This document shows, one piece after another, positions 24,220 through 58,198 of a stretch of 64,000 nucleotides of DNA. The translations under genes and the position numbers were made by a program. Under the pieces are notes generated by a model that had not been told where the DNA came from, made no database searches, and saw nothing but the letters and a program-made list of their open reading frames with translations. This DNA comes from an uncultured delta proteobacterium (GTDB lineage: Bacteria; Myxococcota_A; Polyangia; Fen-1088). Numbering within the stretch: position 1 is the stretch's first letter; the number at the start of each line of letters is the position of its first letter. The stretch is from positions 150,602 through 214,601 of the forward strand of contig CAVWIP010000012.1 of the NCBI GenBank assembly GCA_963755125.1, read 5' to 3'.

Positions 24220-27200
24220 CTACCCGATCGCAAGTCCCAGGTGCGCGCGCAGGGCGAAGTATTCGTCCGACACGCACCACTGAATCAGGTCCCGAACCTT
24301 GTCCTTGGGATCGGCGCAGCCCACCGCCAAGGGCTCGGACTGGATCTGGTGGGCCGCCACCTCCAGGTCGTTGCACATGAGGAAGCCGGCCCGCGACGAG
24401 GTGAAGTCCACCGCCTTGGACCAGCGGTGCAGATCCGCCTCGGCCTGACTCTCGATGAAGCGCCGGACCACCTCGGCCAGCTGCTCGACGTTCTGGGGCG
24501 GAACCAGGCGGCGCAGAAGCTCCAGACGCTCCGCTACCGGTTGCTCCATGTCCGACTTGATGGGCACCTTGGGCTGCACCAGCTTGAGCGCCGCCAGGAA
24601 GTACGCCTTCAGTTCGGACACCTGGGGCACCACCGCCGGCCAGCGCACGACGTGATCGGGCCGCATCAGCGTCAGCTTCTTGCCCAAGGCGTAGGCCAAT
24701 TCCTTTTCCTGCTTGCCCTGCAACAAGGCAGCCCCGACCACGAAGGACGGGCAGAGTTGCTGCTTCTCGCGCGCGTTCATCAGCTCGAGCTCGCCCGGCC
24801 AATCCTGACGCAAGTACAGTTCAGGCGCTGTGACCGCAAGCGCCTGGCTCACGTAGACGAAGACGCCACTGAACATCAGCTTGTCGTTGGTGGGATCGCG
24901 CCGATCCCTGCGCCGAATTCCCACTTCCTTGTGCTCGCGGGCGCGCACCGCCATGATGGCCTGGCTGATGCTCGCCAGGATGAGCGAGATGTAGCGATCC
25001 TCATCGCCGTGGTAGATGTACTTCTGCCAGAGCTCCTCATTGAGCCGCGCCTTCACCCGGGACAGGGTCTTCACTTTGTACTGCTCGTGGAAGCGCAACT
25101 CCTCGGCATCGGCCTGGCGCAGATAGGCGAGCACCGAGGCCGTGCACCAGACCTGGTCGTACTTGCCCATGTCGGTAAACAGGTGCCGGAGTGTCTTGAG
25201 GATGGGCACCATCGCCCCGATGTCCTGCGTGCGCCTGAGGATCGCACGCCACGCGCGCACGGCCTTGTCGTAGGCTTCCGGCCCCTGCATTTGGTACAGT
25301 TCAGCCAAGATCTGGTGGCGCGGCATATTGTCGGGCTCCAGCTTCGCGCACACCTCGAACGCTTCAGCGGCGGCACGGTAGTCCTTGAGCCGTGAGCGGT
25401 AGATTTCGCCCAGCGCGTGCCACAGGGCGATCTGGGTCGACCGCTTCTCGGGCGGCACCTCGGTGCCCAGACGCTTGATCATGCGACGGTAGGCCCGCTG
25501 CTGGTTGGTCCAGTCCTTCTTCGCCGTCATGATCTTGTCGATGCGCTCGAAGGGCTTGAGGTCGTCGGGGTACTCGTCCAGCGCCTTGTTGAACAGCTCC
25601 ACCGCCTCATCGGGCGAGTGCAACTCGGCGTTGGTGATCTGGCCCGCCGTCTGCAGGTACTTGGCCTTGACCCGACCTGTCTCGATGGCTGCCAGGCGCA
25701 ACAGAATCTCCACCGCCTTCTTCCACTGCTTGGTTTCAGTGAGCAGCTCCAACACGTCGGCCAGCAGGCCGCGCGCATCGGGCTTGACCTCGATCGCCTC
25801 GAGATAGGCCGCGATGGCCTTCTGCGGGTTCTTCAACCGCTCCTTGTAGACCCCGATGATCTCCTCGTGCAGACGGAGCTTCTCTTCATCGCTCTCGACA
25901 TGTGCGAGCAAGGCCCGCTTCTGGCGAATCACCGCTTCCCAGTCTCCGGCGGCGGCGTGGATCTCGGTCAACGCCTCCAGCGTGGGGCGGTGGCCGGGAT
26001 CGATCTCCAACGCCTTCTCGAACATGTTGATGGCCTTGGCCCGGTCGCCGATCTTCGTCTTGATGTGGCCGATGCGATGGAAGATCTCCACGATCTGCGC
26101 TTCGCTCTGCGACTCGCGATGGTGAACCAGAATGGTCTGGTATAGCTTGAACGCTTCGTCCCACTGCTCGCGGCGATAGAGCAGATTGGCCCGGTCCACC
26201 AGGGTGGGCAGGTGGGTGGCGTCCAGTTCGTAAGCCGAGCGGTAGTATTTGAGCGCTTTCTCCTCGTCGCCCAGTTGCTCCGCCGCCTTGGCCAGGCGGT
26301 AGCACAAAATGTTGAGCTCGCGGTGAGCCCGACGATCCGCCTTGCGCGTCAGCATCTCCAGGATGGGCACCAGCGGCGCCCATTCACTCTGGCGGTAGTA
26401 GATGTCGGCCAGCGGGGTTGCGGCCTCGACGTGTTCCGGATCGAGTTCCAGGGTGCGCGCGTACAGTTCCTTGGCCTTGGCCTCGTCGCCCAGCTCGGTC
26501 TGGTAGAGCTTGCCGGCTTCGTAAAGGAGGCGGGTACGTTCCAGCACGTTGGGCGTGTGCGACTCGGCACGCTCCATGAACTGAGCCGCCTTGAAGGAGT
26601 CGCCGCGCCGCTTGTAGATGTTGAGCAGCGACAGCATGCTGGGCACGTGCGTCGGGTCGATGGCCAGGGCATCGCTCAGGCGTTCCTCGGCGATGTCCGA
26701 CATCTGCATCTGCTCGTCGAGTATCTTGCCCAGGCGGTAGCTCAGGTCGACCTTCTCGGGGGGCGAGGCTTGGCCCACCAGCCGCTGCATGATGTCCACC
26801 GCGCGCTCCCACTGCTCCGTCTCCTCGTACAGTCGCGCCAGCCCCCGCAAGGCCTCGGCGTGGTCGGGGTCCACATTGAGGATTTCGTTGAAAGCCTCGA
26901 TGGCACTGTCGGGATCGCGCAACCCTTCCTCGTACACCCGTCCCATGTCCAGGTAGATCGTAGCCTTGGCCGCCACATCGTTCTCCACCTGGATGTGCTT
27001 GCGGAAGGTGTCCACCAGCGCATCCCACTTGCGCTCGCCACGATAGAGACGTTCCAGATCCTGGCACGCCTTGAGATTGCGCGGATCGATGGTGAGCGCC
27101 TGCTGCAGGCTATCGATGGCATCGTCGATCTTGCCGGGAAGTTGCTCGCACACCTGCGCCATGCGCAGCAGGAGAGCGACCCGGTCATCGTCGGGCGCCG

Positions 27201-30200
27201 TGACCTGGAGCTGATGCTCCAGGACCTCGAGGTACGCGTCCATCCGGCCGGCCTTCTCGTACAACTGCTCCAGCGCCTTGAGCGCAGGCAGGTTTTGCGG
27301 ATCGACGGTCAGCACCTCCCTGTACGCCTGCACCGCCCGCTCGTTGTCGCCCAGGCGGGACTCCCACAGCTCGCCCACCTGCAGGCGTAGCTTGACCGCC
27401 AGCTCGCCGTCACTGACCACCTGTGACTTTCGCGCCAGCACGTCGGCCAGGCGCTCCCAGGCCTGGGTGCGCCGGTGCAGGCGTTCGAGGGCCTCGATGG
27501 CCTTCAGGCAATGCTCGTCAGCTTGCAGGGCCTGGTCGTAGGCCACCGTGGCCTGGCCCGCATCGCTGATGTGGGTCTCATAGGTTTCGGCCAACGCCAG
27601 CAACACTTCAACCCGTCGCGCCGGATCAGACTCGACTTCGGCGTGCTTGGACAGAACGCTGACCAGATCCTTCCAGCGGGACTCCTTGCGATAGAAGTCA
27701 GCCAGCGCCGCCATGGCGCCCACGTGGTTGGGCTGCCGCGAGAGAGCCTCCTTGGCGGAGGTGATGGCATATTCGGTGTGGTGCAGGGCCGAGTCGTACC
27801 AGCGTCCGATCTTGACCCACAAGTCGGCCGCCTGCTTCGCGTCCTCCATGCCCTGAGCGGCCTGTGTGTACTCGGACAGGAGCTCCGACCACTTGTTGGT
27901 GACGTTGGCCAGCCGTTCCAGTTCCTGAGCGACGGCGTTGCTCGAGTAGTCCTCACGGAACGCGGCCTGCAGCATGATGAAAGCGGAGTCTCGATCGCCG
28001 ATGTGCTCCTCGTAGATACGCGCAATCTCACAGAACAGCTTGATCTTCTCCTCCGCCTCACCGGTGTATTCCACCCGGGCCAACAGCAGCTCCACCAACT
28101 CAGGCCACACCTTACGCTGACGGTACACATCCTCCAAGGCCGATGAGGCTGCTGCATGCGAGGGGTCCATCTTCAAGACGCGCTCGTAGGCTTCAGCCGC
28201 CGCGCCGCCGTCGCCGATCTTCTCGGACCAGATGGACGCGATCTGCATCAACACATCCACCTTGTCACCCACCGATGCGAGCGCTGCCGCCCGGCGCTCC
28301 AGTACGTCCACACACTCCTCCCAGCGCCCCTCCTGGGTGAACAGCGTCTCCAGCGCCGTGAGAGCACGGGCATCAGCCGCATCGATCTGCAAGACATGGC
28401 GCCACGCCTCGATGGCCGCATCGACGCGCACCAAGGTGCTGCCTTCCAGTTCGCCGAGTTCCGCGTAGCAATCCCGCAGCGTGGCCGCCGGGAAGGTTTC
28501 GCTGCCCACGGCGATGAGTTGGTGCAAGGTTTCCGAGAGCTCTTCCCAGGCCGCGGCGCTCCGGTAGTTGGCTGCGATGGCCTGCAGCGCCTCGACGTCC
28601 CCGGGATTGATCTCGGTGACCTTCTTCCAGCACTCGAGGGCGTTTCTTTCCCGGCCGAGCTTCTCACCCCACACACGGCCCAAACGCTTGTACACCGGAA
28701 TGCGCGCCTCCGGGTCTTCGCTCGCTCGAATCTGGCTGTCCAAAACCTCCGTCAGCTCGCGCCACTCCTCGGCCTGCTCGTGCAGGTCGGCCAAAGCCGA
28801 CAGTGCCACCGGGTCAGCGCCGCGCAGGTCGAGCACCCGCCGCCACAACTCGATGGCCTTTTCACGCTGGCCGAGAACGTCGGACGTGATCCTGGCCATG
28901 CGCGCGTAGCAGTCGGAGAGCGCTTCGTCGCCCGGGGCGATGTCCAGCATCTTCTCGTAGATCTGGTACAGGTCTTCCCACTGCTCGGCGCGGAAGTAGA
29001 TGCGCTCCAATGCCTCGAGAGCTTCCGGCGAGCGCGACTCCTGTTCCAGCACCGCTAGATAGCTGGCCACCGCTCCCGGCGCGTCGTCGATGACGTCGGC
29101 CAGGATCTTGCCCAGACGCAGGTGCAGCGCGACCAGTTCCCTCGACCCGTCGGTGATGGCGATGCGCCGACGCAAGACATCTGCAAGTTTTTCGTAATCG
29201 CCTTGCTTGTCGTAAACCCGATCGAGGAAAGCCAGGGCTTCGCCGTCACTGGGGTCGAGCGCCAGCACCTGTCCCAGCACATCCTCGACCCGCACCAGAT
29301 CGGCAAGCTCGGCGTCGAAGACCGTGGCCAGGCGGAAGAGAACGTCGCGGCGCACGCGGCGATCGCTGGCCCGGGCCGCCGCGTCCGCCATGCTGGCCAC
29401 GTAGGTTTCCCACTGGTGGGTGGCGCGGGCCAAGCGTAGCAACTCATCCAATCCCTGCTCGGACGCCGGATCCTCGACCACCGCTTTCGACCACCACTCA
29501 AGCGCCGCCACCTGATCCATGAGCTTGGACTCGGAGATCTCCGCCAGCCGCCGCAGCAGCCGCTGTCGCTCCTCGGCGTCGGACTCCACGCCCAACTCGA
29601 CGTGATAGACTCGAACCAGCTTCTCCCACTCCTCGCCCACCCGGTAGAGCGGCTCAAGGACCTGCGCGATCTCCCGCTGCATGGCCCCGCTCGATAGCAG
29701 CCGCTCCAGCGTGGCACGGGTCTCGGCGTGCTTGGGATCGATGTTGAGGATGTCCTGATACGCCTCGACCGCCTTGGGCATGTCCCCCAGCGCCACTTCC
29801 AGGATCTGGGCCAGCCGGAAGGTGAGATCGATGATCTGAGCGTCGCTATCCGCCAGACGGATCTCGCCGCGGACGATGTCGGCCAGCTCCGTCCAGCGCT
29901 CGGTCCTGGTGTAAAGCCGGTCGAGTGCCTCGAGGCCGTCCTTGCGATCGGGCTCGGCATCGGCGACCCGCCGATAGGTCGCGATGGCCTTGTCGAGGTC
30001 ATGGGTTTCCTCCTCGTAGATGCGGGCCAGCCGCAGCAGCATCTCGGTCTGCAGCCGACTGTCCAGGATGCGGTCGATCTCGGCGTCGTACACCGCGGCC
30101 AGATCAGCCCAGCGGCCGCTCGACTCGGCCAAGCGGTCAATGTGGGCAATCACCTCCTGATTCGACGGGTCCACCCGCAGGGCGCGGCAGTAGGCATCAA

Positions 30201-33200
30201 ACGCCGCGTCGAAATCATTGAGCCGACGCTCGTGAATCTTGGCCAACAGGTCGAGCAACTCGACCCGTCGCACCGGATCCTGCGTGTAGGAAACCATTAC
30301 CTCGTGAACCGCGGCCACCTTGGGCCAGTCGCCTGCGCTTTCGTACACCGGTTGCAACACCTGGGCCGCCGCGATGGGCTCCTCCCCTCGCTGCATCATG
30401 CCTTCAAGAGCCTTCAGGGTCGGCTCGTGCGAGGGATCCATGGCCAACACGCGCTGATAGGCTTCCGTGGCCCGGCTCGCATCTTTGAGCTTGTCCGACC
30501 ACAGCTCACCGATGCGGTAGCGCAACGAAACCACCTCGGCCGAGGACGAAGACAGCTCGGTCTGGCGCTCGAGCACGTTGAGCAGGTCGTACCATCGCTC
30601 GGTCTGCAGGTAGAGGCGATCCAGGGCCTGCAGGGCATCCAGGTCATCCGGATCCATGTCGAGGATCGACGTGTAGGTTTCTATGGCGCGGGGAGCGTCT
30701 TGCAGTTCGCGGTCGTACACCTGGCCCAGCACGAAAAGCCGTTCCTTCTTTCGTGCCGGGTCCGTGGCCAACTCGGCCTGGCGGGCGTAGACATCCTTCA
30801 AGTCGTTCCAGCGCGACAGGCGCAAGAACAGCCGCACCAGGCTGTCCAGGGCCGTCTCGTTGGTGTCATCCAGGGCCAGGACCTGTCGGTAGACCTCGAT
30901 AGCCTTGTCGGAGTCGTCGAGGACTTCTTCCCAGATCTTGGCTGCGCGCGAGCCCAGCTCCTTCTTGTCGGCCAGCGCATCGACCATGTCCATCTTTCGC
31001 TGCAGCAGCAGAACCAACTGAGCGTAATCGGCGGTGCGGATGTAGATGGCCTCCAGCGCATCCGCCGCTTCCAGGTCGCGCGGTCCCACGGCCAGCGCCT
31101 GCTTGTAGGCCTCTGCCGCAATTTCGGAGTTGCCGAGCTCGTTCTCGGCCAGCTTCGCGACGGCGTGGTAGACGGCGCCCTTCAACTCGTCCGACTGCAA
31201 CTTCTCGGCGGCGGCTTGATAGCGGACCACTAGGTCGTCACACCGGCCGAGGGCCTTGGCCAGGCGTTCCAGGCGTCGGGTCGTCTCGGGATCGAGGGGA
31301 TCCTCGGCCAGCGCGCGCCCCAGAGCCTGGTACGCCCGTGCCGGATCGTCGAGCCCGTCCTCGCAGGCCGTGGCGATCTCGTGCAAGAGGTCAATCTTGC
31401 GCCGCATGTCCAGGGCGTGGCGTGCCTGGATCTCCAGCACCCGTACCAGGTTGCCAAAGTCGCTGCGCGCACGGTACACCGGGTCCAGGATCTCGGCCAG
31501 AACCAGATCGTGGTCGGGGTTGTCGAGCAGTCCTTCCAGCGCCGCCACGGTTTCTTCGTGGCCAGGCGCCAAGTCGAGCAGTCGTCGATACGTCTCCACT
31601 GCGGACGTGATGTCGCGCAGCTTCTGTTCCCGCAGGTGCCCGAGACGAGAAAGCAGGCGTACCTGCTCCTCCTCGTTGCTCGCCAGCTCGAGCTGTCGCT
31701 GCAGGTTGTCCGCCAGATCGAGGTCCAATCCCTTGTGCACGAAGAGACGATCGAGCGCGCGCAGGGCGGTCAGGCTGCCCGCGTTGTCACCCAGCGCCTC
31801 CTTCCACGCGGCAATCGCCTCGTCGGGATTGCCGATGGCCTCTTCCCATATGGCAGCGATGCGAGCGTGAATCTGCTCGCGCTCCTCGCTAGAGCGGACC
31901 AGCTCCACCTTCTTCTTCAGGGTGTCGACCAGATCGGACCAACGCTCGGTCCGCGTATACAGTCGTTCCAGGGCTTCGAGCGCGGAGGCGTCTTCCGGTT
32001 CGATCTCCTGGGCCAGGCGGAAGTACTCGACCGCCTTGTCTGATTGGTCGAGCTTCTCGTCGTAGGCCACCGCGATGACCAGCAAAATCTCGCGCTCCAA
32101 CCCGGACGCGAGCTTGCGACTTCCCTGGATTTCGCTGTACAGGGCCACCAACTCCCGCCACTTGTCCATGCGATCAGCCAGCGCTTCCAACGCCGCGCGC
32201 GCCTCGGCCGAGTCGGGACTTATGCCGAAAGCCTCGGCATAGGCCTGGTACGCCCGTTCAGCGCGGCCAGCCTCGCCTTCCAACCCGCCGATGCGCAAGA
32301 GCAGGGCGACCCGGGCCGCGGCATCCGTCTCGCGCGCCAACTTGATACGCTGAACCTGCAGCAACCGCTCCGTCTCGTGTCCCGCCTCGTAGATGGGCTC
32401 GAGGGCCGCCACCGCGCTCATCTGGTGCTGACTGTCGGCAAGATAGACTTCCAGAGCTGCACGCGCGCCTGCATGGGTCGCGTCCAGCGCCAGTGCCTCC
32501 TGATACGACTCCACGGCAACGCCCGGACTCTTCAGGTACTTCTCGGAGACCTCGCCCAGCCGGAACTTCAACTCGGCCGCAGCCGGGTCGTCATTGGGCA
32601 GCTTGAGCTGGCGGACGATGATCTTGCTCAGATCCTTCCAGCGCTCCGTGGCCCGATACAGCCGGTCCAGCGCGCGCAGGGCTTGCACGTCTTCCTTGGC
32701 CGTCTTCAGGATGTCCTTGTACAACTCGATCGCCTTGTCGGCGTCGTGCACCTGTTCTTCGTAGAGCGCCGCGAGCTGCAGTCGCACCTCGCGCTTCTCA
32801 TCCTCGGAGCCGGCCAGAGCGAGTTTCTTGTCGTAGATGGCTAACAACTGGTCGTGCTGGCCGGTTGCAATGTACAGGCGTTCGAGGGCGAGCACGGCCT
32901 GCTCGTCGCGGTCCACGATCTCCAGGATCTCGCGGTTGCGCGCAATCGCCGCCTCGCTGTTGGCCAGCTCCTTCTCGTAGGCTCGCGCCACGGTAGCCAA
33001 GAGGGGAAGACCATCTTGTCCCTGCAGGCTTGGCAGGACGGCCTCGTAGGCTTCCACCAGCAGCGCCCAGTTGCCCGTCTCGCCAGCCAACCGCTCGGCG
33101 TACTCGCGCGCCCATTCCTCACGCGGATTCTCCGACAGCGCCTGCAACGCCACGGTAAGCGCCAGCGGCCTGTCGCCGGCGTCGCTCTCGAGGATTTGGG

Positions 33201-34605
33201 CGATGCGCAGCATGCGCTCCTGGCGCTCGGCCGCATCTTTGGTGTGCTCGAGCTGCACCTGCAGCACCTCGGCCAGCCGCTTGGCGTCCTTGCCCTTCTC
33301 GTACATGGGGATAAGTGCCTCGGCCGCCGCCAGGTTGTGGCCATCGAGGGAGAGCACCTTCTCGAAGGCCTTCTGCGCCTTGTCCGGCTTGTTCAGTCGG
33401 TCGCGGTAGAGGACCGCGATCTTGTTCCACAGCCCCACCCGGGCCGCGTCGGTTTCCGTGTCGGCTTGCCGCTCCAACACCCGCGCGAATTCGTCCCACT
33501 TGCCCTGGACCGAGTAGAAACCCTCGAGCGCGTCCCAATCCTTGTTCTGCAGATAGAGCTTGCGGAGCGCATCCTGGGCGCGTCGGTTGTCGGGCTCGGC
33601 ATCCAGCAGCGTCTTCCACGCGGCCACGGCCAAGTCGAGCCTCTGCAACTTCTCGGTGTACACCGTGGCCAGCTTGGGCAGAATGACGCCGCGTTTGGCT
33701 GGGTCGTCGGTCAGAACGGCCTGCTTGTCCAGAACTGCAGCCAGTTCGTCCCACCTCTTCTCACGCTCGTACAACTTTTCCAGCTCAACCAGCGCCTCTG
33801 CGTCACTGTCGTTGACCTCGAGGACTTTGCCCCACAGCTCGATCGACACGGCCGCCTTCTTGAGCTTCTCCGTGGCCAGCTTGGCCACCTCGGCCCAGCG
33901 CCTGCCCCGCTCGGCCGGATCGGCAACCCGCGCTATCTCCTGCCGCAACACCGCCACCAGGCGATCCCAGTCCCGCCGCTTCTCGTACATCTGCTTGAGG
34001 AAGGTGAGCGCGTCGGCGTTCCCTGGATCAATCTCGAGAATCGCCTCGAACGCCTTAATGGCCTCGGCTTGGTTCGAGAACTTGTCCAGGTACAGGTTTG
34101 CCACCCTTAGGTGCAGGGCAATCTTCTCCTCGGCGGCCTCGACGATGGCCGCCTTCTTGCGCAAGACCGCAATCAATTCGGGCCAACGCGGGATGGCCTC
34201 GTACTGGGCAGCCAGCGCGTCCATCACCTCAACATTGTCGGGTTGCAGGGCCAGGATCCGGTTGTAGGCCTCCACCACCATCACATCGAGCTTGAGCCGA
34301 TCGCGGTACAGCTCGACCATCTCCAACAACACGGGAACCTTCGCCTCGGGAGTAGGCCAAGTCGCCTTCTCAACCGCTTCCTTCAGGACCTCCACGCATG
34401 CCTTCCATCGTTCCGCCCTCCGGTATACCCGGGCCAACTCGCGCCTGGGCTCCCATGCCGAGGGCGCGGCAGCCGCGATCTTCTTCCACGCATCGATGCC
34501 CTTCTCCACCGACAGACGTTCGGTCTCCAGCGCTGCGGCTGCCTGGCCCTGCAGCTCCGCTGGAAAGTCCTCAAGCACAGCGTTCGAGGTTGATTCCTTG
34601 CCCAC
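24220..34605 (-). CDS. gltI: Giant cytoplasmic TPR-repeat protein (3461 aa), GltI/AgmK-like gliding-motility scaffold
   Basis: About 3100 aa of uninterrupted 34-aa TPR units (recurring ...A.YE.VL..DP.N..AL.AL..LY...RW.EL..VL...), plus a non-TPR C-terminal domain of about 370 aa. Its size and its position after the gltD-H homologues match M. xanthus AgmK/GltI (about 3800 aa). Confidence 0.85.
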   Translation of the reverse strand: MGKESTSNAVLEDFPAELQGQAAAALETERLSVEKGIDAWKKIAAAAPSAWEPRRELARVYRRAERWKACVEVLKEAVEKATWPTPEAKVPVLLEMVELYRDRLKLDVMVVEAYNRILALQPDNVEVMDALAAQYEAIPRWPELIAVLRKKAAIVEAAEEKIALHLRVANLYLDKFSNQAEAIKAFEAILEIDPGNADALTFLKQMYEKRRDWDRLVAVLRQEIARVADPAERGRRWAEVAKLATEKLKKAAVSIELWGKVLEVNDSDAEALVELEKLYEREKRWDELAAVLDKQAVLTDDPAKRGVILPKLATVYTEKLQRLDLAVAAWKTLLDAEPDNRRAQDALRKLYLQNKDWDALEGFYSVQGKWDEFARVLERQADTETDAARVGLWNKIAVLYRDRLNKPDKAQKAFEKVLSLDGHNLAAAEALIPMYEKGKDAKRLAEVLQVQLEHTKDAAERQERMLRIAQILESDAGDRPLALTVALQALSENPREEWAREYAERLAGETGNWALLVEAYEAVLPSLQGQDGLPLLATVARAYEKELANSEAAIARNREILEIVDRDEQAVLALERLYIATGQHDQLLAIYDKKLALAGSEDEKREVRLQLAALYEEQVHDADKAIELYKDILKTAKEDVQALRALDRLYRATERWKDLSKIIVRQLKLPNDDPAAAELKFRLGEVSEKYLKSPGVAVESYQEALALDATHAGARAALEVYLADSQHQMSAVAALEPIYEAGHETERLLQVQRIKLARETDAAARVALLLRIGGLEGEAGRAERAYQAYAEAFGISPDSAEARAALEALADRMDKWRELVALYSEIQGSRKLASGLEREILLVIAVAYDEKLDQSDKAVEYFRLAQEIEPEDASALEALERLYTRTERWSDLVDTLKKKVELVRSSEEREQIHARIAAIWEEAIGNPDEAIAAWKEALGDNAGSLTALRALDRLFVHKGLDLDLADNLQRQLELASNEEEQVRLLSRLGHLREQKLRDITSAVETYRRLLDLAPGHEETVAALEGLLDNPDHDLVLAEILDPVYRARSDFGNLVRVLEIQARHALDMRRKIDLLHEIATACEDGLDDPARAYQALGRALAEDPLDPETTRRLERLAKALGRCDDLVVRYQAAAEKLQSDELKGAVYHAVAKLAENELGNSEIAAEAYKQALAVGPRDLEAADALEAIYIRTADYAQLVLLLQRKMDMVDALADKKELGSRAAKIWEEVLDDSDKAIEVYRQVLALDDTNETALDSLVRLFLRLSRWNDLKDVYARQAELATDPARKKERLFVLGQVYDRELQDAPRAIETYTSILDMDPDDLDALQALDRLYLQTERWYDLLNVLERQTELSSSSAEVVSLRYRIGELWSDKLKDASRATEAYQRVLAMDPSHEPTLKALEGMMQRGEEPIAAAQVLQPVYESAGDWPKVAAVHEVMVSYTQDPVRRVELLDLLAKIHERRLNDFDAAFDAYCRALRVDPSNQEVIAHIDRLAESSGRWADLAAVYDAEIDRILDSRLQTEMLLRLARIYEEETHDLDKAIATYRRVADAEPDRKDGLEALDRLYTRTERWTELADIVRGEIRLADSDAQIIDLTFRLAQILEVALGDMPKAVEAYQDILNIDPKHAETRATLERLLSSGAMQREIAQVLEPLYRVGEEWEKLVRVYHVELGVESDAEERQRLLRRLAEISESKLMDQVAALEWWSKAVVEDPASEQGLDELLRLARATHQWETYVASMADAAARASDRRVRRDVLFRLATVFDAELADLVRVEDVLGQVLALDPSDGEALAFLDRVYDKQGDYEKLADVLRRRIAITDGSRELVALHLRLGKILADVIDDAPGAVASYLAVLEQESRSPEALEALERIYFRAEQWEDLYQIYEKMLDIAPGDEALSDCYARMARITSDVLGQREKAIELWRRVLDLRGADPVALSALADLHEQAEEWRELTEVLDSQIRASEDPEARIPVYKRLGRVWGEKLGRERNALECWKKVTEINPGDVEALQAIAANYRSAAAWEELSETLHQLIAVGSETFPAATLRDCYAELGELEGSTLVRVDAAIEAWRHVLQIDAADARALTALETLFTQEGRWEECVDVLERRAAALASVGDKVDVLMQIASIWSEKIGDGGAAAEAYERVLKMDPSHAAASSALEDVYRQRKVWPELVELLLARVEYTGEAEEKIKLFCEIARIYEEHIGDRDSAFIMLQAAFREDYSSNAVAQELERLANVTNKWSELLSEYTQAAQGMEDAKQAADLWVKIGRWYDSALHHTEYAITSAKEALSRQPNHVGAMAALADFYRKESRWKDLVSVLSKHAEVESDPARRVEVLLALAETYETHISDAGQATVAYDQALQADEHCLKAIEALERLHRRTQAWERLADVLARKSQVVSDGELAVKLRLQVGELWESRLGDNERAVQAYREVLTVDPQNLPALKALEQLYEKAGRMDAYLEVLEHQLQVTAPDDDRVALLLRMAQVCEQLPGKIDDAIDSLQQALTIDPRNLKACQDLERLYRGERKWDALVDTFRKHIQVENDVAAKATIYLDMGRVYEEGLRDPDSAIEAFNEILNVDPDHAEALRGLARLYEETEQWERAVDIMQRLVGQASPPEKVDLSYRLGKILDEQMQMSDIAEERLSDALAIDPTHVPSMLSLLNIYKRRGDSFKAAQFMERAESHTPNVLERTRLLYEAGKLYQTELGDEAKAKELYARTLELDPEHVEAATPLADIYYRQSEWAPLVPILEMLTRKADRRAHRELNILCYRLAKAAEQLGDEEKALKYYRSAYELDATHLPTLVDRANLLYRREQWDEAFKLYQTILVHHRESQSEAQIVEIFHRIGHIKTKIGDRAKAINMFEKALEIDPGHRPTLEALTEIHAAAGDWEAVIRQKRALLAHVESDEEKLRLHEEIIGVYKERLKNPQKAIAAYLEAIEVKPDARGLLADVLELLTETKQWKKAVEILLRLAAIETGRVKAKYLQTAGQITNAELHSPDEAVELFNKALDEYPDDLKPFERIDKIMTAKKDWTNQQRAYRRMIKRLGTEVPPEKRSTQIALWHALGEIYRSRLKDYRAAAEAFEVCAKLEPDNMPRHQILAELYQMQGPEAYDKAVRAWRAILRRTQDIGAMVPILKTLRHLFTDMGKYDQVWCTASVLAYLRQADAEELRFHEQYKVKTLSRVKARLNEELWQKYIYHGDEDRYISLILASISQAIMAVRAREHKEVGIRRRDRRDPTNDKLMFSGVFVYVSQALAVTAPELYLRQDWPGELELMNAREKQQLCPSFVVGAALLQGKQEKELAYALGKKLTLMRPDHVVRWPAVVPQVSELKAYFLAALKLVQPKVPIKSDMEQPVAERLELLRRLVPPQNVEQLAEVVRRFIESQAEADLHRWSKAVDFTSSRAGFLMCNDLEVAAHQIQSEPLAVGCADPKDKVRDLIQWCVSDEYFALRAHLGLAIG

Positions 34606-51850: not shown

Positions 51851-52846
51851 CTAGCCGTCGCGCTTCTTCGGCGACGAACCCGCGAGAATCTGATCGAGCA
51901 GGTCACTCTCGATGTTGCCCCCGCTGACCAGGACAACCACGCGACGACCCTGCACCGGGAGCTTGTCTTCCATGAGGCCGGCCAGCGCGACCGCTGCCGA
52001 GGCCTCGCACATGATGCCCAGGGACCGGTACGCGTACACGATGGCCTGGCGGATGCCCACCTCACTCGCCAAAGCAACCTCGGGGAAATAGTCCTTGGCC
52101 ATAGCAAAGGTGCGCTCGCTAACCGCACCTTCCAGGCCCTCGGCCAGAGTGGGGCCGCCGTCGTATTGGGTGTAGGCTCGGCCATCCTCTAGCGAGCGCT
52201 TCATGGCGCAGTTGGCTTCAGGCGAGACGCCCAGCACGCGGATTCCGCGCGGAACCATTTCCACCCCCAACCCAGCCGCCAGGCCGCCGCCGCCCACCGG
52301 GGTCACCACCGTGTCCACGTCGGGAAGCTGGGCCAAGATCTCGCGTGCCAACACGCCTCCATTTCCCGCAATGACCCAGTCGTCGTCGAAAGCCGAGGCG
52401 AAGCTGAGCGAGGGATCGGCTGCCGCACGTCGGCGAGCCTCGGCTTCGGCTTGGTCATAGGACGCACCCGCGACCTCCAGCGCCGCGCCCAGCGCCAGGA
52501 TGCCGTCGCGCTTGCTTTGCGGTGTCTGGGCAGAGACCAGTACCCGGGCCTCGACCCCGAACGCACGGGCCGCCAGCGCTATGCCCAGCCCGTGGTTGCC
52601 CGCCGAGGCGGCGATGATGCGCTTCTTGCCTGCCTGGCACATCCCCGCTACGAACGCCGCAGCCCCGCGCAGCTTGAACGATCCGGTTCGCTGCAGCGAC
52701 TCGAGTTTGAGCCAAACATCCGCTCCGGTGCGGCGGCCCAACGCGGGCGCGGGAACGAGCGGCGTCACGCGCACCAGTCTGCGTACCCGTTCGGCGATGC
52801 TGCCGCCAGTGACTTCGGTCCAGATGTCTGGGTCGAACAGGCGCAT
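51851..52846 (-). CDS. PLP-dependent threonine/serine dehydratase family enzyme
   Basis: Lysine motif LQRTGSFKLRGAA, a Gly-rich loop TPVGGGGLAAG, and SAGNHG. The start was set at MRLFDPD (ATG about 52844-52846) so that it does not overlap the nadA start. Upstream in-frame ATGs at 52942/52948 are possible. Confidence 0.75.
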   Translation of the reverse strand: MRLFDPDIWTEVTGGSIAERVRRLVRVTPLVPAPALGRRTGADVWLKLESLQRTGSFKLRGAAAFVAGMCQAGKKRIIAASAGNHGLGIALAARAFGVEARVLVSAQTPQSKRDGILALGAALEVAGASYDQAEAEARRRAAADPSLSFASAFDDDWVIAGNGGVLAREILAQLPDVDTVVTPVGGGGLAAGLGVEMVPRGIRVLGVSPEANCAMKRSLEDGRAYTQYDGGPTLAEGLEGAVSERTFAMAKDYFPEVALASEVGIRQAIVYAYRSLGIMCEASAAVALAGLMEDKLPVQGRRVVVLVSGGNIESDLLDQILAGSSPKKRDG

Positions 52847-52931
52847 GGGGTCGATGCACGCTACCAGCGCAGCCCGCAAAACGCCACGTGTCTGCGTGCG
52901 TTCGGCCAGTGAGGGCGGTAGACCTAGATCG

Positions 52932-54017
52932 ATGCTCGACATCGACATTGCCCGGCTCGTGCGCTCGGGCCAGGTGGAAGCAAGCCGGGCCGAGCGCGTG
53001 CTCTGGCTGTGGAGCGAGATCCGCCGCCTCAAGCGAGAAAAGAACGCCTTCGTGCCCGCCCACAACTACCAGGTGCCGGAGGTGCAGGTTATTGCCGACA
53101 CGGTCGGCGATTCCTTCGAGCTGGCGGTGCGCGCCCGCGACGTAAAAGCGCGCCTGGTGGTCTTCTGCGGTGTCCGCTTCATGGCCGAGGGCTGTACCAC
53201 CCTGGCTCCGGACGTGCCCGTCTACCTGCCGAACCAGCAGGCGCTCTGCTCGCTGGCGGAGATGGATGCAGACGATCTCGAGGAACGGCAGCAGTTCTTG
53301 CGCTCGCTTGGGCGCAAGTTCGCCACCATGACCTACGTGAACACCTACGCCAGCGTGAAGGCTCTGTCCGACGTGTGTTGCACCAGTTCCAACGCGGTGA
53401 AGATCGCCGACCGGCTGGGCGCGCCGGACCTGCTCTTCGTGCCCGACCAAAATCTCGCCTATCAGGTGGCGCTTCAGACCCGACGCATGTACCTGCCTCC
53501 GCCGGAGCCGCACCAGTTCCATCCGCGCGAGTACCTGGCGCGCGTCGAACCTCTGCTCCGAGAAGGCGAGCGCGCGGGTCTAGTCGGCAACATTTTCGCC
53601 TGGGAAGGCGCCTGTCACGTGCACCAGCAGATGACCCTGGCCGACATCGCCCATATCCGCCAGGAAGATCCCGAGGCCGTGGTCATCGTGCACGGCGAGG
53701 TGAAGCCCGAATTGCAGCAGGCCGCCGACGAGGTGATGTCGACCGCACAGATGGCCAAGTACGTCGCCAGCCATCCCGAGAAGAAACGCCTGGCCATCCT
53801 CACCGAGTGCGGCCTGGTGGTACGTCTGGAGCTGGAGCACCCCGACCGGCAGTTCTACAAGCCCTGCCGGCTGTGCGAGCACATGAAGGCCATCACCCTG
53901 GAGAGCGTCTACGAAACCCTGCGCGACGAGCCAGCCCACTGCCTGGTCACGGTTCCCGAGGGTGTGCGACAGCGCGCCGCGACCGCCATGCTGCGCATGA
54001 TCGAGCTTGCTGCGTGA
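52932..54017 (+). CDS. nadA: Quinolinate synthase A
   Basis: Motifs AHNYQVPEVQ, VVFCGVRFMAE, TYVNTYASVKA and GACHVHQQM; 361 aa. The first 144 codons of ORF 52500..54017 were rejected. Confidence 0.85.
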   Translation: MLDIDIARLVRSGQVEASRAERVLWLWSEIRRLKREKNAFVPAHNYQVPEVQVIADTVGDSFELAVRARDVKARLVVFCGVRFMAEGCTTLAPDVPVYLPNQQALCSLAEMDADDLEERQQFLRSLGRKFATMTYVNTYASVKALSDVCCTSSNAVKIADRLGAPDLLFVPDQNLAYQVALQTRRMYLPPPEPHQFHPREYLARVEPLLREGERAGLVGNIFAWEGACHVHQQMTLADIAHIRQEDPEAVVIVHGEVKPELQQAADEVMSTAQMAKYVASHPEKKRLAILTECGLVVRLELEHPDRQFYKPCRLCEHMKAITLESVYETLRDEPAHCLVTVPEGVRQRAATAMLRMIELAA

Positions 54018-54023
54018 ATCCCG

Positions 54024-55112
54024 CTACGGGAATACCAGCACGTTGCGCGAGCCGTAGCTGGCTACCAGCCCGTCGATGTGGCGCCTGACCAGATCGCGCC
54101 GGGCCACCACCGCCCGGATCTCGCTCGGGGTCAGGATCTGGTATTCGTCCTGGCTCGCCTGGGCGAGCATCTGCTCCATCGCCGGAACGGTGACCCGGTC
54201 GAGCGCCTGGTAGAGCTGGCGCGAGAATCGTTGTGTCCGGTGCAAGATCGAGCGCGTGTGCTCGTTGCCCTCGGGCTCGATGAAGAAAGACATGGTGTTG
54301 TCCATGAAGAGCAAGCGTGAGCCGTCAGGCAATGTCTTCATGTTCCCGCCACTGTAGCGGTCAGGGTTGGAGGTCAGAAAGTCGAAAACCACAAGCTGCG
54401 AGAGCTGGGCGGCCAGCGCGCGCTTGTCGATCGGAATGGGCTGCCCTTGCGTCAACCATTGCATGCTCTGCTGGATGCCGTCGGGTGTGTCCAAGTCCGA
54501 GTCCTTGATCTCGGGTACCCAGTACATGACCACACCCGCCGTCTTGCCCATCGGATTGAAAACCGTCTCGGCGCGGATGCGCGGCAAGGCCGCCAGGCTG
54601 TCGGGATGAAGGTGCGAAAAGATCTCCTCGCGGCTCACCATGCGAGGCGCCGCCGGCGGAACAGCATTGAGGCCCAGCAGACGGTTGAGCCGGTAGGCCG
54701 CCACTTCCTTGCGCGGGATGGTCCGCAAATCGGTCTGAGCCGGCTTGAAGGCCGCACGCGAGCCATCGGCGAGCTCGACCCGAAACGACAGCGTCGATCC
54801 CCCTTTGTTGAGCTTCATGCCCAGGATGGGCTGCGTGCGCACGCGCTCGATCAGCATCTCGTCGGACATGCCGAGGAAGGTCCCGGCCGGCTCCTCGAAG
54901 ATGGCGGGGTTGGGCGGATTCGACAGCTCGCCGCGCGGCAGAAGCGTGGCGGAAACCGCCGGACCTGATGATCGATGGCCGAACAGTTGCCCCAACCTGT
55001 CAGTTCCGCCCTCGCTGAAGAAGTGCACCGATGCTCGGGCAAGCCATCCCGCGCCGACGAGAGCGCTCGCCAGCACCAGGGCTTCGGCCGCCACATATCG
55101 CCCGAGTCTCAC
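54024..55112 (-). CDS. Membrane-anchored Fam20/FJX1-like 'secretory-pathway kinase' homologue (DUF1193/Fam20C family)
   Basis: GTG start. N-terminal signal-anchor RLGRYVAAEALVLASALVGAGWLA. The blocks GGSTLSFRVELADGSRAAFKPA, RKEVAAYRLNRLLGLNAVPPAAPRMV, VFDFLTSNPDRYSGGNM and LLFMDNTMSF align to human FAM20C [61 protein letters not shown] and IIHLDNGRGFG. Confidence 0.7.
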   Translation of the reverse strand: MRLGRYVAAEALVLASALVGAGWLARASVHFFSEGGTDRLGQLFGHRSSGPAVSATLLPRGELSNPPNPAIFEEPAGTFLGMSDEMLIERVRTQPILGMKLNKGGSTLSFRVELADGSRAAFKPAQTDLRTIPRKEVAAYRLNRLLGLNAVPPAAPRMVSREEIFSHLHPDSLAALPRIRAETVFNPMGKTAGVVMYWVPEIKDSDLDTPDGIQQSMQWLTQGQPIPIDKRALAAQLSQLVVFDFLTSNPDRYSGGNMKTLPDGSRLLFMDNTMSFFIEPEGNEHTRSILHRTQRFSRQLYQALDRVTVPAMEQMLAQASQDEYQILTPSEIRAVVARRDLVRRHIDGLVASYGSRNVLVFP

Positions 55113-55159: not shown

Positions 55160-56269
55160 TTAGTTGTCCAATGCCTGCTGAATCGCCGCGTCGATCTCGG
55201 CCCTGCGCCTGTGCCCGACCATGACCCTGCGAATGACTCCATCGCGGCCGATGATGACCAGGTGGGGCAACGAAACCACCCGGTACAGCCCGCCGACCTC
55301 TTGGTCGTCGAGGAGATTCGGGTAGGGCGCCGGGTACTGCCGCAAGAAGTCCTGGATCTCGGTTTGGTCGGCCATGGATCCCTCCGAGCTGATGGCCAAG
55401 AACTCTACGCCCTGCGACCGCCGCGCACTGTAAATCTCGTGGAGCGTGGGCGCGAGTGCGATGCATGGCGGACACCAGCGAGCCCAGAAATCGAGCAGGA
55501 CGACTTTGCCCCTCAGCTCCGCAAGCGCCACGCTGCCCGGCTTTCCGTCGATGCGCGGGAGCACGAAAGCGGGCGCGACAACCCCGCGGCCGACCGGCGC
55601 AATCGCATCGCGGTTGTGGCTGAGCCAGACGATGTTCAGGGTGAGCGCGCCGGCGAGAATGCCGCCCAGGACCGAGGCAGCCACGCGCATGCGCCTGGGC
55701 GGGTCCACCTGCCCTGGCGCAGGCACGGGTGAGCCGCCCGCGCCTTGCACTCGGGACGTACGGCTGCGTGCCAGCCGAATCCCGATGACAAGAATCACCA
55801 GGGCCCAGGCCAGCCCGACCACGGGAATCGCCGGGCCCAGCACGCCCGCAGCAGCCGGGAACAGCGAGCCGGCCAGCTCGGCCAGACCCGAAAGCAAGAG
55901 GTAGGGAATGCTGCAGGCTGCGCCCAACTCGGCGTCAAGCACCGGGTCGCGGCGGCCCCGGCCAGCCAGGACGGTGGTGGCGATTGCAGCCGGCAGCGCT
56001 ATCAGCATGGCCGGCCGCAGATCCTGACCGACGATACTCAGAAGTTGCGCCAGAGTGCCGGCAAGGGATGCCTCGCGCAGCATGAGCACCGCGCGCGCCA
56101 CGACCGGAAGGCGAAAACACAGCACGCCGAGCAGCAAGATCACCAAGGCATCGCCCACTCCACCGCGCTCCCACACTTGAATATCGGCCAGTGCGCGTCC
56201 GGGCGACACGATGAGAGTGCCCACACGGAGCAAGAGCCCCGACCTGACGTTGCTTCGACCTTCGGTCAT
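55160..56269 (-). CDS. TlpA/ResA-like thiol:disulfide oxidoreductase (thioredoxin fold, WCPPC) fused to an N-terminal polytopic membrane domain
   Basis: C-terminus VVLLDFWARWCPPCIALAPTL...VVSLPHLVIIGRDGVI. The N-terminal about 230 aa are hydrophobic. The start was set at ATG 56267-56269 (MTEGRSNV). Confidence 0.7.
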   Translation of the reverse strand: MTEGRSNVRSGLLLRVGTLIVSPGRALADIQVWERGGVGDALVILLLGVLCFRLPVVARAVLMLREASLAGTLAQLLSIVGQDLRPAMLIALPAAIATTVLAGRGRRDPVLDAELGAACSIPYLLLSGLAELAGSLFPAAAGVLGPAIPVVGLAWALVILVIGIRLARSRTSRVQGAGGSPVPAPGQVDPPRRMRVAASVLGGILAGALTLNIVWLSHNRDAIAPVGRGVVAPAFVLPRIDGKPGSVALAELRGKVVLLDFWARWCPPCIALAPTLHEIYSARRSQGVEFLAISSEGSMADQTEIQDFLRQYPAPYPNLLDDQEVGGLYRVVSLPHLVIIGRDGVIRRVMVGHRRRAEIDAAIQQALDN

Positions 56270-56288
56270 CAACGCTCTCTGCGCTGGG

Positions 56289-57438
56289 CTACTGCCGCCC
56301 ATGCTCGCGCTGCTGAAGCAGCTTCTTGGCCGCTGTCGCAAGTGCGCCCGGAATGTTGCGCGAACGCGCGATATTGCGCAGGTCGTCCTGGTGCAAGTAA
56401 GGCAAGAAACGCAGCGACGAGCCGAGCGGGCACTTGGGGTTGCTCACCAAGGCCATCTTCACGGGATAATCCTTGCTGCACTCGCGGCTGTTCGCGATGT
56501 AGCGAATCACGTCGTCGCACACGTTGGTGCTGCCCGCGAACTGCCTGATCTCCATGTCCGTGATCTGCGGTGAACGAATGACAGTCATGGCCACCAGCTT
56601 GTTGCTGTCGCGGACCAGCATCTTGCGGCAGTAGGCGTTCCCGATGGTCGCGAGTCGGATCTTCTCGAAGATCCTGAGCTGGTCGAACTTGATGAATGAC
56701 ATCCCGGACGCTCGCTCCTTCTCTTCGGCCACCGCCTCCTCGTCGAACAACTCCTCGGCATCCCCGGACGCCTCATCGATTCCCGAAGCAGCCTCGGCCG
56801 CGGTTATCGCGGCCTGGAAGCGACCGTCGGTGGCTGCCCCATCCGTGGCTTCGGGATCCTGGCGAATCGCATTGACGATCTCGTCAAAGGCGGGGATGCC
56901 CTCCAGACGAACTCCGTTGCGCGCGCACAACTCCACCGCCCTGTTGACCGAGGACATGCGCGCTCGCTTGTTGAAGAACAGCGCCTCCACGATGGGCGGG
57001 CAGCGCAACAGTCGCACTTCGTTCTGGAAAATGATCTCAAGCAAGCTTTCGCCAAGACGGCCGGCCAGCATGACGAATGTTCTGGTCGGCGGTGGCCGGG
57101 TTGTAGAGGATCCTCTCCAGCACGGCCGTGCGCTGGTCGGGCAGACGCGCGGCAAAAAAGTGCAGCAAGGGCGCAGGCAATGCCTCGCCCAGGGGCGGGT
57201 TGATGACGTTGTCAGGGAAGCTCGCCGGTGCAGCCTCAGCGGCCGTTCGGATCGCCGGCTCAGCGTCGAATGACAGCTGGTAGATGGCCACCAGCAGCTC
57301 GGCCGGCCGCAGCGGCGCCATGCCCCGCACCGCCAGCAGCTTGGCCGTGGGCGCGCCGGCAACCAAGCTGGCCACGGCCGGCGATAGGCTGGCCACCGGT
57401 AGCGGCTGGAGTTGCAGGGATTCGCCTTGACTAGACAT
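56289..57438 (-). CDS. HEAT/ARM-like repeat protein, hypothetical, with an apparent single-base frameshift near 57070
   Basis: The N-terminal frame (ORF 57037..57438: ...ERILYNPATADQNIRHAGRPSWRKLA*) and the downstream frame (...TFVMLAGRLGESLLEIIFQNEVRLLRCPPIVEALFFN...LVSNPKCPLGSSLRFLPYLHQDDLRNIA) share the same repeat type and abut. The start ATG lies 2 nt after the coaX stop. Confidence 0.5.
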
Positions 57439-58198
57439 GGTTTCGCTCGAACAGGATGCGCAAGCCTCGCAGGGTTAGGAGCTCGTCACACTCTTCGATA
57501 GTAGACGAGTCCCGCGCCACGAGGGTGGCCAGGCCGCCCGTGGCGACCACCATCGGTGCATAGTTCATTTCCGCACGGATCCGGTTGACCAGAGCGTCGA
57601 CCATGCCCGCATAGCCAAAAACCAGGCCGGCCTGGATGCTGGCCACGGTGTTGGTGCCCACCACGCGCTTTGGCCTGGCGATCTCCACCCGAGGAAGACG
57701 CGCGGTGGACCGATACAGCGCATCGGCCGATACGATGAGGCCGGGGGCGATGATTCCGCCGGCGTACTCCCCGCGCGCCGTGATCGCGTCAAAGGTGGTG
57801 GCGGTGCCGAAGTCGACCACGATGGCCCCCTGCGGCCAACGCGCATAGGCGGCCACCGCGTTCACTATGCGATCCGCGCCCAGATCGCGCGGGTTCTCGT
57901 AGAGGACGGCCATCCCGGTCTTCATACCTGGCCCAACGACCAAGGCTGCGACGCCGAAGTAGCGCACAAACAACCGTTCCATGGGCGCGGTGGCGGGAGG
58001 GACGACGGACGATATAATGGCCTCCGTGACCTGCCGCATGGTCAGGCCTTGCAGTTCAAGCAACCCCGACAGGATTGCTGCGTACTCATCTGCCGTGCGT
58101 TCGACTCGGGTTTCCACGCGCCAGTCGAAACGCAAGGCTTCTCCCTCGAACAGGCCGAGGGCCGTATGAGTGTTTCCAATGTCAACCGCGAGCAGCAT
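57431..58198 (-). CDS. coaX: Type III pantothenate kinase
   Basis: MLLAVDIGNTHTALGLF, GADR and VVDFGTATTFD. Confidence 0.9.
   Translation of the reverse strand: MLLAVDIGNTHTALGLFEGEALRFDWRVETRVERTADEYAAILSGLLELQGLTMRQVTEAIISSVVPPATAPMERLFVRYFGVAALVVGPGMKTGMAVLYENPRDLGADRIVNAVAAYARWPQGAIVVDFGTATTFDAITARGEYAGGIIAPGLIVSADALYRSTARLPRVEIARPKRVVGTNTVASIQAGLVFGYAGMVDALVNRIRAEMNYAPMVVATGGLATLVARDSSTIEECDELLTLRGLRILFERNHV

Follow-up and report, generated by a model that had tools for sequence, protein, structure and literature searches.

In animals, Fam20 kinases act in the secretory pathway. FAM20C and its Caenorhabditis elegans counterpart (PDB 5yh3, 5yh0, 4kqa) represent the Golgi casein kinases, and FAM20B and hydra Fam20 (PDB 5xom) the glycosaminoglycan xylosylkinases. 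Animal Fam20 proteins carry four conserved disulfides, and the kinases have been traced back to sponges only (Zhang et al. 2018). A pan-kinome paper on Legionella terms the FAM20 cluster eukaryote- or Metazoa-specific, and a 2021 review of Fam20 leaves prokaryotes unmentioned. On bacterial Fam20, the literature yielded a single sentence, in a 2026 preprint that lists FAM20B in passing among possible contributions of Myxococcota to eukaryotes; otherwise, the literature searched treats Fam20 as specific to animals or eukaryotes. Here we describe a Fam20-like kinase gene on contig CAVWIP010000012.1, from an uncultured delta proteobacterium of the Polyangia. It lies at positions 54,024 to 55,112 of the window, by which we mean the whole stretch of 64,000 nucleotides that was analysed.

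We propose, with a probability of roughly 0.6, that this gene encodes a signal-anchored, catalytically competent atypical kinase of the Fam20 fold, which faces the periplasm and has as its substrate a macromolecule that is secreted or belongs to the envelope. Direct support for this proposal comes from the homology to Fam20, the Fam20 fold of the model, the conserved catalytic residues, the hydrophobic helix at the N-terminus and the export signals carried by paralogues.

Homology, predicted fold and active site

The gene and the parts of its product are laid out as follows:

54024..55112, minus strand: Fam20-like kinase gene, complete, taken from the list of open reading frames (ORFs); 362 amino acids, GTG start, stop codon at 54024-54026
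55038..55097, minus strand: codons of residues 6-25, the predicted signal anchor and sole hydrophobic segment (by hydropathy; a helix in the model)
54885..54983, minus strand: codons of residues 44-76, a poorly conserved Pro-rich linker (predicted local distance difference test, pLDDT, 50-65; variable, gapped columns)
54027..54884, minus strand: codons of residues 77-362, the kinase domain, predicted to have the Fam20 fold

The ORF is a real gene. A word-indexed search with scored candidates returned 694 homologues at E<=1e-3, the best being 88% identical over the full length, and the GTG start is backed by an MRLGRY N-terminus that is conserved among orthologues. The protein begins with MRLGRYVAAEALVLASALVGAGWLA, and its kinase domain comprises about 285 amino acids. 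A further copy of the gene was looked for in the window and none was found.

The first-pass annotation, which was made from the sequence without database searches, had matched four blocks of FAM20C to this protein. HMMER indeed aligns all four with FAM20A/C: AAFKPAQT with ALFKPMKQT, EVAAYRLNRLLGLNAVPPAAPRMV with a 24-letter block, FDFLTSNPDR with a 10-letter block and FMDNTMSF with HLDNGRGF. When the single sequence was searched with phmmer against all PDB sequences, the five best matches were Fam20 chains (E 1.3e-3 to 0.03), comprising FAM20A, FAM20C, zebrafish Fam20C1 and a FAM20B-type xylosylkinase. Taken alone, the kinase sequence would make the Fam20 assignment a borderline one.

The homology is settled by family profiles, for which we used an alignment of 24 orthologues (A1) and an alignment of 115 diverse relatives with 26-88% identity to the query (A2). 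Against the PDB, the A1 profile matched Fam20 chains only (FAM20C at 1.3e-8). The A2 profile matched only the six Fam20 sequences there, with FAM20C at 3.2e-25, DrFam20C1 at 2.6e-21, FAM20A at 5.5e-20, C. elegans Fam20 at 2.5e-17 and FAM20B at 5.3e-14, the next family being PI4KIIα at 0.13. The match spans both lobes (E 2e-10 for the N-lobe and 4e-11 for the C-lobe), and the N-lobe block (GG-T/S...AFKP...EVAAYRLNRLLG..VPP) matches Fam20 and FAM198 only. Matches to Fam20C extend about 130 residues to the C-terminus. Judged by these profiles, the similarity to Fam20 is beyond chance.

The predicted structure points in the same direction. An AlphaFold run with the 24 close orthologues of A1 reached a pLDDT of 49.8, and its model was replaced by that of a run with A2, which used neither templates nor eukaryotic sequences and reached a pLDDT of 92.2 and a predicted template modelling score (pTM) of 0.81. 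In this model, residues 2-43 form a long helix at the N-terminus (pLDDT about 90), after which come the low-confidence linker 44-76 and a compact kinase domain (77-362). Structure comparison scored it against solved kinases as follows:

DrFam20C1: 24.6 (272 residues aligned, 3.0 Å, 21% identity)
Hydra Fam20: 24.5
C. elegans Fam20: 24.0
Human FAM20C: 19.6
PI4KIIα: 16.3
CtkA: 14.3
Actin-fragmin kinase: 13.5
HipA: 11.8
CotH: 11.3

Foldseek ranked 28 Fam20 chains before all else (E 4e-14 to 9e-9). A superposition on FAM20C had been suggested as a check in the first-pass annotation, and the model indeed superposes best on Fam20 chains, such that the kinase domain is predicted to have the Fam20 three-dimensional fold. 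Since Fam20 chains outrank PI4KIIα, CtkA, HipA and CotH, a generic HipA/PI3K-like alternative is rejected as far as solved families are concerned. The SCO1664 and HipA_2 families, which are without solved structures, leave a residual caveat on Fam20 as the nearest family.

The residues expected to carry out phosphotransfer are all in place:

54744..54746, minus strand: Lys123 of AAFKP, the putative ATP-binding lysine of beta3; counterpart of the FKP lysine in FAM20C; 101 of the 115 relatives have K and 12 have R
54705..54707, minus strand: Glu136 of helix alphaC, at the canonical ion-pair position; aligns with the Glu of NAEIAAF in FAM20A/C; E in 113/115
54342..54383, minus strand: catalytic loop D244-FLTSN-P-D251-R252-YSGG-N257; aligns with a 12-letter segment of FAM20C
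54300..54302, minus strand: Asp271 of FMDNT, the putative metal-binding residue equivalent to the Asp of LDN/DFG; aligns with HLDNGRGF of FAM20C; D in 114/115

Within the catalytic loop, D244 and R252 are present in 115/115 relatives, N249 and D251 in 113/115 and N257 in 111/115, and the active-site Lys, Glu, Asp, Asn and Asp are kept in 88-100% of the relatives. Such conservation makes it likely that the kinase is active as an enzyme and not a pseudokinase of the FAM20A type.

Export, orientation and rival explanations

The first-pass annotation had also proposed an N-terminal signal anchor, and this holds: residues 6-25 (Kyte-Doolittle 1.8) are the one hydrophobic segment of the protein and are modelled as a helix. 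Tyr6 and Glu10, which lie inside this predicted transmembrane helix, are invariant among the 24 orthologues, and an acidic residue that is conserved at such a place hints at a partner within the membrane. More distant anchored members keep a related 'C[IV]ALE' motif. The Pro-rich linker that follows is similar to the 'stem' region of Golgi enzymes. An N-terminal hydrophobic segment is found in 79 of the 115 relatives, among which we recognise the conserved 'MRLGxC[IV]ALE' anchor type, typical Sec signal peptides with AxA at their end, and the lipoboxes of lipoproteins. Because paralogues have signal peptides or lipoboxes, the wider kinase family is, to judge by these signals, clearly exported. 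A Tat signal was considered and rejected, as the window protein has G-R and no twin arginine. The charges of the window kinase (+3 in the N-tail, 0 in the C-flank of the helix) favour an N-in, C-out topology, and we regard a periplasmic orientation as probable.

In the mechanism that we propose, one N-terminal transmembrane helix would anchor the kinase in the inner membrane and the flexible Pro-rich linker would come next. The N-terminus would be cytoplasmic and the kinase domain periplasmic, which is the most likely arrangement and corresponds to the plan of type II Golgi enzymes. Through Lys123-Glu136, Asp251/Asn257 and Asp271, and with a divalent metal, phosphate would be transferred from a nucleotide triphosphate to a hydroxyl group of a secreted or envelope macromolecule, with protein Ser/Thr or a glycan sugar as candidate acceptors. 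Kinase activity, the phosphate donor and the periplasmic orientation of the window orthologue are the parts that we infer. The weakest point, and at the same time the most interesting, is where the phosphate donor comes from.

Several observations pull away from this proposal. The periplasm is regarded as being without ATP, a real difficulty for any periplasmic kinase. In several to many orthologues, the C-flank is as basic as the N-tail (P0065, for example, has +3 vs +4); the positive-inside rule is thus ambiguous for many orthologues, and the kinase domain could face the cytoplasm. The profile libraries are also reserved. A match to Pfam PF06702 (Fam20C), which the first-pass annotation had named as a check, turned out to be sub-threshold, at 16.2 bits (E 0.0085) vs a gathering score of 26.8, with FAM198 as the only further Pfam match at E<=1. 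PF06702 is matched by 58/115 relatives at E<=0.01 (best 3.9e-11), and a precomputed match to it is present in a minority of close homologues. The best NCBIfam match is the actinobacterial, PI3/4-kinase-like SCO1664 family (TIGR03843; 27.2 bits, 2.2e-6, cut-off 172.4), limited to model positions 128-232 of 253, and 95/115 relatives match SCO1664 in the C-lobe. Library hidden Markov models alone were rejected as a classifier, the Pfam Fam20C match (16 bits) and the SCO1664 match (27 bits) both being sub-threshold. Moreover, the four disulfides of Fam20 are missing: the 362-residue protein has zero cysteines, and its relatives mostly have 0-2, with no conserved position among the 115. The beta3-alphaC insert of Fam20 (…PPDFFYFSDYERHNAE…), DFFYFSDYE of FAM20C, is absent as well, and 12 residues lie between Lys123 and Glu136 vs about 25-34 in Fam20C, where HMMER opens a gap. 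Finally, the gene contexts of distant paralogues are heterogeneous (FtsEX with an M23 peptidase, AspRS, G6PD and others) and carry no functional signal; some of them are on short contigs, and the greedy ORF caller is unreliable on high-GC loci.

Could the kinase be tethered to the membrane and yet face the cytoplasm, with the helix lying N-out or serving as a mere tether? Cytoplasmic ATP would then be used, no periplasmic supply would be needed, and the substrate could be a lipid of the inner leaflet or a glycan precursor bound to lipid, much as for PI4KIIα or the lipopolysaccharide kinases. The many orthologues whose C-flank is as positive as the N-tail would fit such an arrangement. We nevertheless hold it to be unlikely, as the window protein itself has the +3 vs 0 charge difference, a short basic N-tail with a single hydrophobic helix is a classic N-in signal anchor, and paralogues of the same fold with cleavable signal peptides or lipoboxes are certainly exported. 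The predicted periplasmic location lends itself to a different thought, namely that the kinase fold performs other chemistry or uses another donor in an ATP-poor compartment: AMPylation (as SelO does), glutamylation (as SidJ does) or phosphotransfer from something other than ATP. Atypical kinase folds do catalyse other reactions, and SidJ and SelO are cited in the reference list of the Fam20 review. This explanation seems improbable to us, however, because the full canonical set of Lys, Glu, catalytic Asp, Asn and metal-binding Asp is conserved and aligned with Fam20, and no sequence sign of an inverted nucleotide site is seen.

Two further explanations deserve very little credence. According to one, the protein is a generic bacterial kinase of the HipA, PI3K or PI4K kind (a toxin or a lipid kinase), whose likeness to Fam20 is that of a shared catalytic loop only; the SCO1664 matches of the window protein and its relatives, together with the 36/115 relatives that match HipA_2, are what speaks for it. 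These matches are, however, confined to the C-lobe (about 110 residues for SCO1664, 45-65 residues round the catalytic loop for HipA_2) and lie far below the cut-offs, whereas the N-lobe block is specific to Fam20 and FAM198. No HipB-like antitoxin gene adjoins the kinase gene, which is not what HipA membership would lead one to expect. According to the other, we are dealing with a pseudokinase or scaffold whose role is to regulate a partner, for example the membrane redoxin encoded next to it. The Fam20 family does include a pseudokinase, FAM20A, and the invariant Tyr6 and Glu10 of the helix suggest an intramembrane partner; against this, every catalytic residue is present in the window protein and conserved family-wide, and the Gln at an acidic position, to which the inactivity of FAM20A is partly due, has nothing comparable in the window kinase. 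A periplasm-facing, catalytically competent kinase of the Fam20 fold is thus the reading that we prefer.

Gene neighbourhood

The kinase gene comes last in a block of four genes, of which the first three are, in coding-strand order:

57431..58198, minus strand: coaX
56289..57438, minus strand: hyp380, a conserved gene between coaX and the TlpA-like gene, split over two frames in the window, with the break near 57076-57194
55160..56341, minus strand: TlpA/ResA-like gene; its product is a membrane protein that has about 5 hydrophobic segments and, at the C-terminus, a thioredoxin domain of the TlpA/ResA type (WCPPC)

The TlpA-like gene had been described in the first-pass annotation as lying downstream of the kinase gene; on the coding strand it is in fact upstream (5'), 47 nucleotides away. 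Its product matches Pfam AhpC-TSA (1e-18) and Redoxin (1e-15) as well as NCBIfam ResA (8e-23). No terminator-like site was found in the intergenic gaps of the coaX-hyp380-TlpA-kinase block, including the gap of 47 nucleotides, and the kinase gene is probably co-transcribed with the other three genes, which form a block conserved in Polyangia. The same order is found in most of 79 loci from metagenome-assembled genomes (MAGs) of Polyangia/Myxococcales, down to about 47% identity. In many loci, the redoxin and kinase genes are separated by variable DNA of up to about 3 kb. At locus L003 (6894-7880), and also in some relatives, the DNA between the TlpA-like and Fam20-like genes includes a gene for a di-haem cytochrome c peroxidase (CCP_MauG). 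At locus L087 (5866-8095), where the kinase shows 34% identity in A2, the order is CoaX, hyp376 and Fam20-like; only 4 nucleotides separate hyp376 from the kinase gene, and this distant orthologue has no TlpA-like gene beside it. TlpA was thus rejected as an obligatory partner, on account of its absence there and of the variable DNA in many loci. The disulfide-based link between redoxin and kinase that had initially been suggested does not stand either: the kinase and its relatives offer no conserved cysteine, and since the kinase is without cysteines altogether, the redoxin is not needed for its folding. A role of the redoxin in cytochrome c maturation would accord better with its neighbours, a multihaem cytochrome gene in the window and CCP_MauG in a relative.

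The more constant partner of the Fam20-like gene may be hyp380, which is 34% identical to hyp376 (E 2e-69) and matched no Pfam family. With tblastn, it is found in two frames in the window and in one frame in the close relatives L007, L008, L010 and L011; the split may stem from a frameshift that arose in sequencing or assembly, or else the gene is a pseudogene in the window.

On the other side, a NadA gene is convergent with the kinase gene, with 6 nucleotides between the stop codons. The mechanically called NadA ORF (52500-54017, plus strand) has an N-terminal extension of about 170 amino acids, which overlaps a PALP-enzyme gene that runs the other way (51851-53065). As the NadA domain begins at residue 173, the true start is probably near 53010. 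In a low-GC relative (L086, 4460-8077), a lipoprotein-type Fam20-like gene follows, after 10 nucleotides, an FtsE/FtsX-like ABC pair with an M23 peptidase gene, and tad pilus genes come after it; this arrangement was seen in that one instance only. Elsewhere in the window, a 2877-amino-acid multidomain ORF resembling polyketide or polyunsaturated fatty acid synthases, with KS, AT, ACP, KR and DH domains, occupies 9184-17817 (minus strand), and an ORF of 3461 amino acids made up of TPR repeats almost throughout occupies 24220-34605 (minus strand).

Distribution and relation to animal Fam20

The first-pass annotation expected a rare prokaryotic representative. An exhaustive profile search of cluster-50 representatives instead returned 1341 at E<=1e-3, of which 661 reach E<=1e-10 and 254 reach E<=1e-30, and a close relative is encoded on 199 stretches of the species-genome collection. 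This is a large family within one phylum, and therefore abundant and not rare. Named family members are all from MAGs, as are the 79 best genome loci throughout; these loci are labelled Myxococcales, Polyangia or Myxococcota, or uninformatively (Deltaproteobacteria, Proteobacteria, Pseudomonadota bacterium), and the closest of them (85-89% identity) carry isolate names of the form 'fen_...'. Members of the signal-peptide subfamily are named Polyangiales, Myxococcales or generically Deltaproteobacteria. Lineage-level labels, where family members carry them, are Myxococcota in every case; one small low-GC-looking subfamily is left unassigned. The cluster names for the family read 'hypothetical protein' only.

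One paralogue is much closer to the animal enzymes. P0391, from a Polyangiaceae bacterium (L091, 6001-7191), matches FAM20A/B/C on its own at about 1e-15, carries the Pfam Fam20C match and has two Fam20 cysteine positions in common with animal Fam20. It resembles the window kinase in belonging to the bacterial superfamily, in its DNPDRYSGGN loop and in its N-terminal hydrophobic segment; the window kinase, as a paralogue, is far more divergent from animal Fam20. We placed these proteins in a crude, unrooted neighbour-joining tree of the C-lobe (126 sequences, four of them eukaryotic; 131 columns; 100 bootstraps). The four eukaryotic sequences are monophyletic in 100/100 bootstraps and their branch joins P0391 in 94/100, with the window protein among the sequences farthest from eukaryotic Fam20. 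This tree, which is short and has few eukaryotic sequences, is compatible with an origin of Fam20 in Myxococcota and is no proof of it.

It is tempting to speculate that animal Fam20 descended from a large and old family of exported Myxococcota kinases, which would phosphorylate proteins or glycans outside the cytoplasmic membrane in a nucleotide-dependent manner. We offer this as a tentative idea that is more doubtful than the proposed role of the window kinase. A recent transfer from animals to bacteria would be expected to yield a much narrower bacterial radiation than the one seen, which comprises at least 1,300 clusters at 50% identity. As far as we know, nucleotide-dependent phosphorylation is not thought to occur in the periplasm. 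Although any biological payoff is speculative, such a family, if confirmed, would root the secretory-pathway kinases among prokaryotes, or at the least supply a sister group to them there, and would provide a small model enzyme for the Fam20 fold that is free of disulfides and glycans, and it would pose the question of how a phosphate donor is supplied to a kinase outside the bacterial cytoplasm.

Compared with the described systems, the window kinase stands closest to FAM20C and C. elegans Fam20, with which it aligns in both lobes (E 3.2e-25). It shares with FAM20C the catalytic Lys, Glu, Asp and Asp and the general plan of an N-terminal anchor, a linker and an exported kinase domain, export being a prediction in the bacterial case. 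It differs in being about 100-130 residues shorter, with about 18-21% identity, and in having DRYSGGN in the catalytic loop where FAM20C has DRHHYE. The insert that it lacks is of functional weight in animals: it bears an extra acidic residue (Glu213 in C. elegans Fam20, Asp152 in hydra Fam20), the dimer/substrate motif of Fam20C and the Tyr-Glu-Gly-Tyr of the Gal-Xyl pocket of Fam20B. Accordingly, Tyr148-Glu149-Gly150-Tyr151 of the FAM20B insert is absent from the window kinase, and the Gal-Xyl pocket residues of FAM20B and hydra Fam20 are unrecognisable. Of the other substrate-binding residues of Fam20, the His of DRH is Tyr in the window kinase, the Lys that follows LDN in FAM20B is missing from it, and neither the His nor the Lys/Arg after LDN is conserved in its family. 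The first-pass annotation had cited the substrates of Fam20B and Fam20C; with the pocket-forming insert missing, neither xylosylkinase nor casein kinase specificity can be transferred, and sugar-kinase activity is possible and not indicated by the sequence. PI4KIIα, CtkA, actin-fragmin kinase, HipA, CotH, SCO1664 and HipA_2 are all second-tier matches in which the N-lobe is unmatched, and none of the solved ones has the Fam20-specific N-lobe block or the C-terminal helices. Seen in this company, and on the strength of its profiles and its model, the protein is best described as a minimal, cysteine-free and insert-less bacterial Fam20-like kinase, with the fold and the catalytic machinery common to Fam20.

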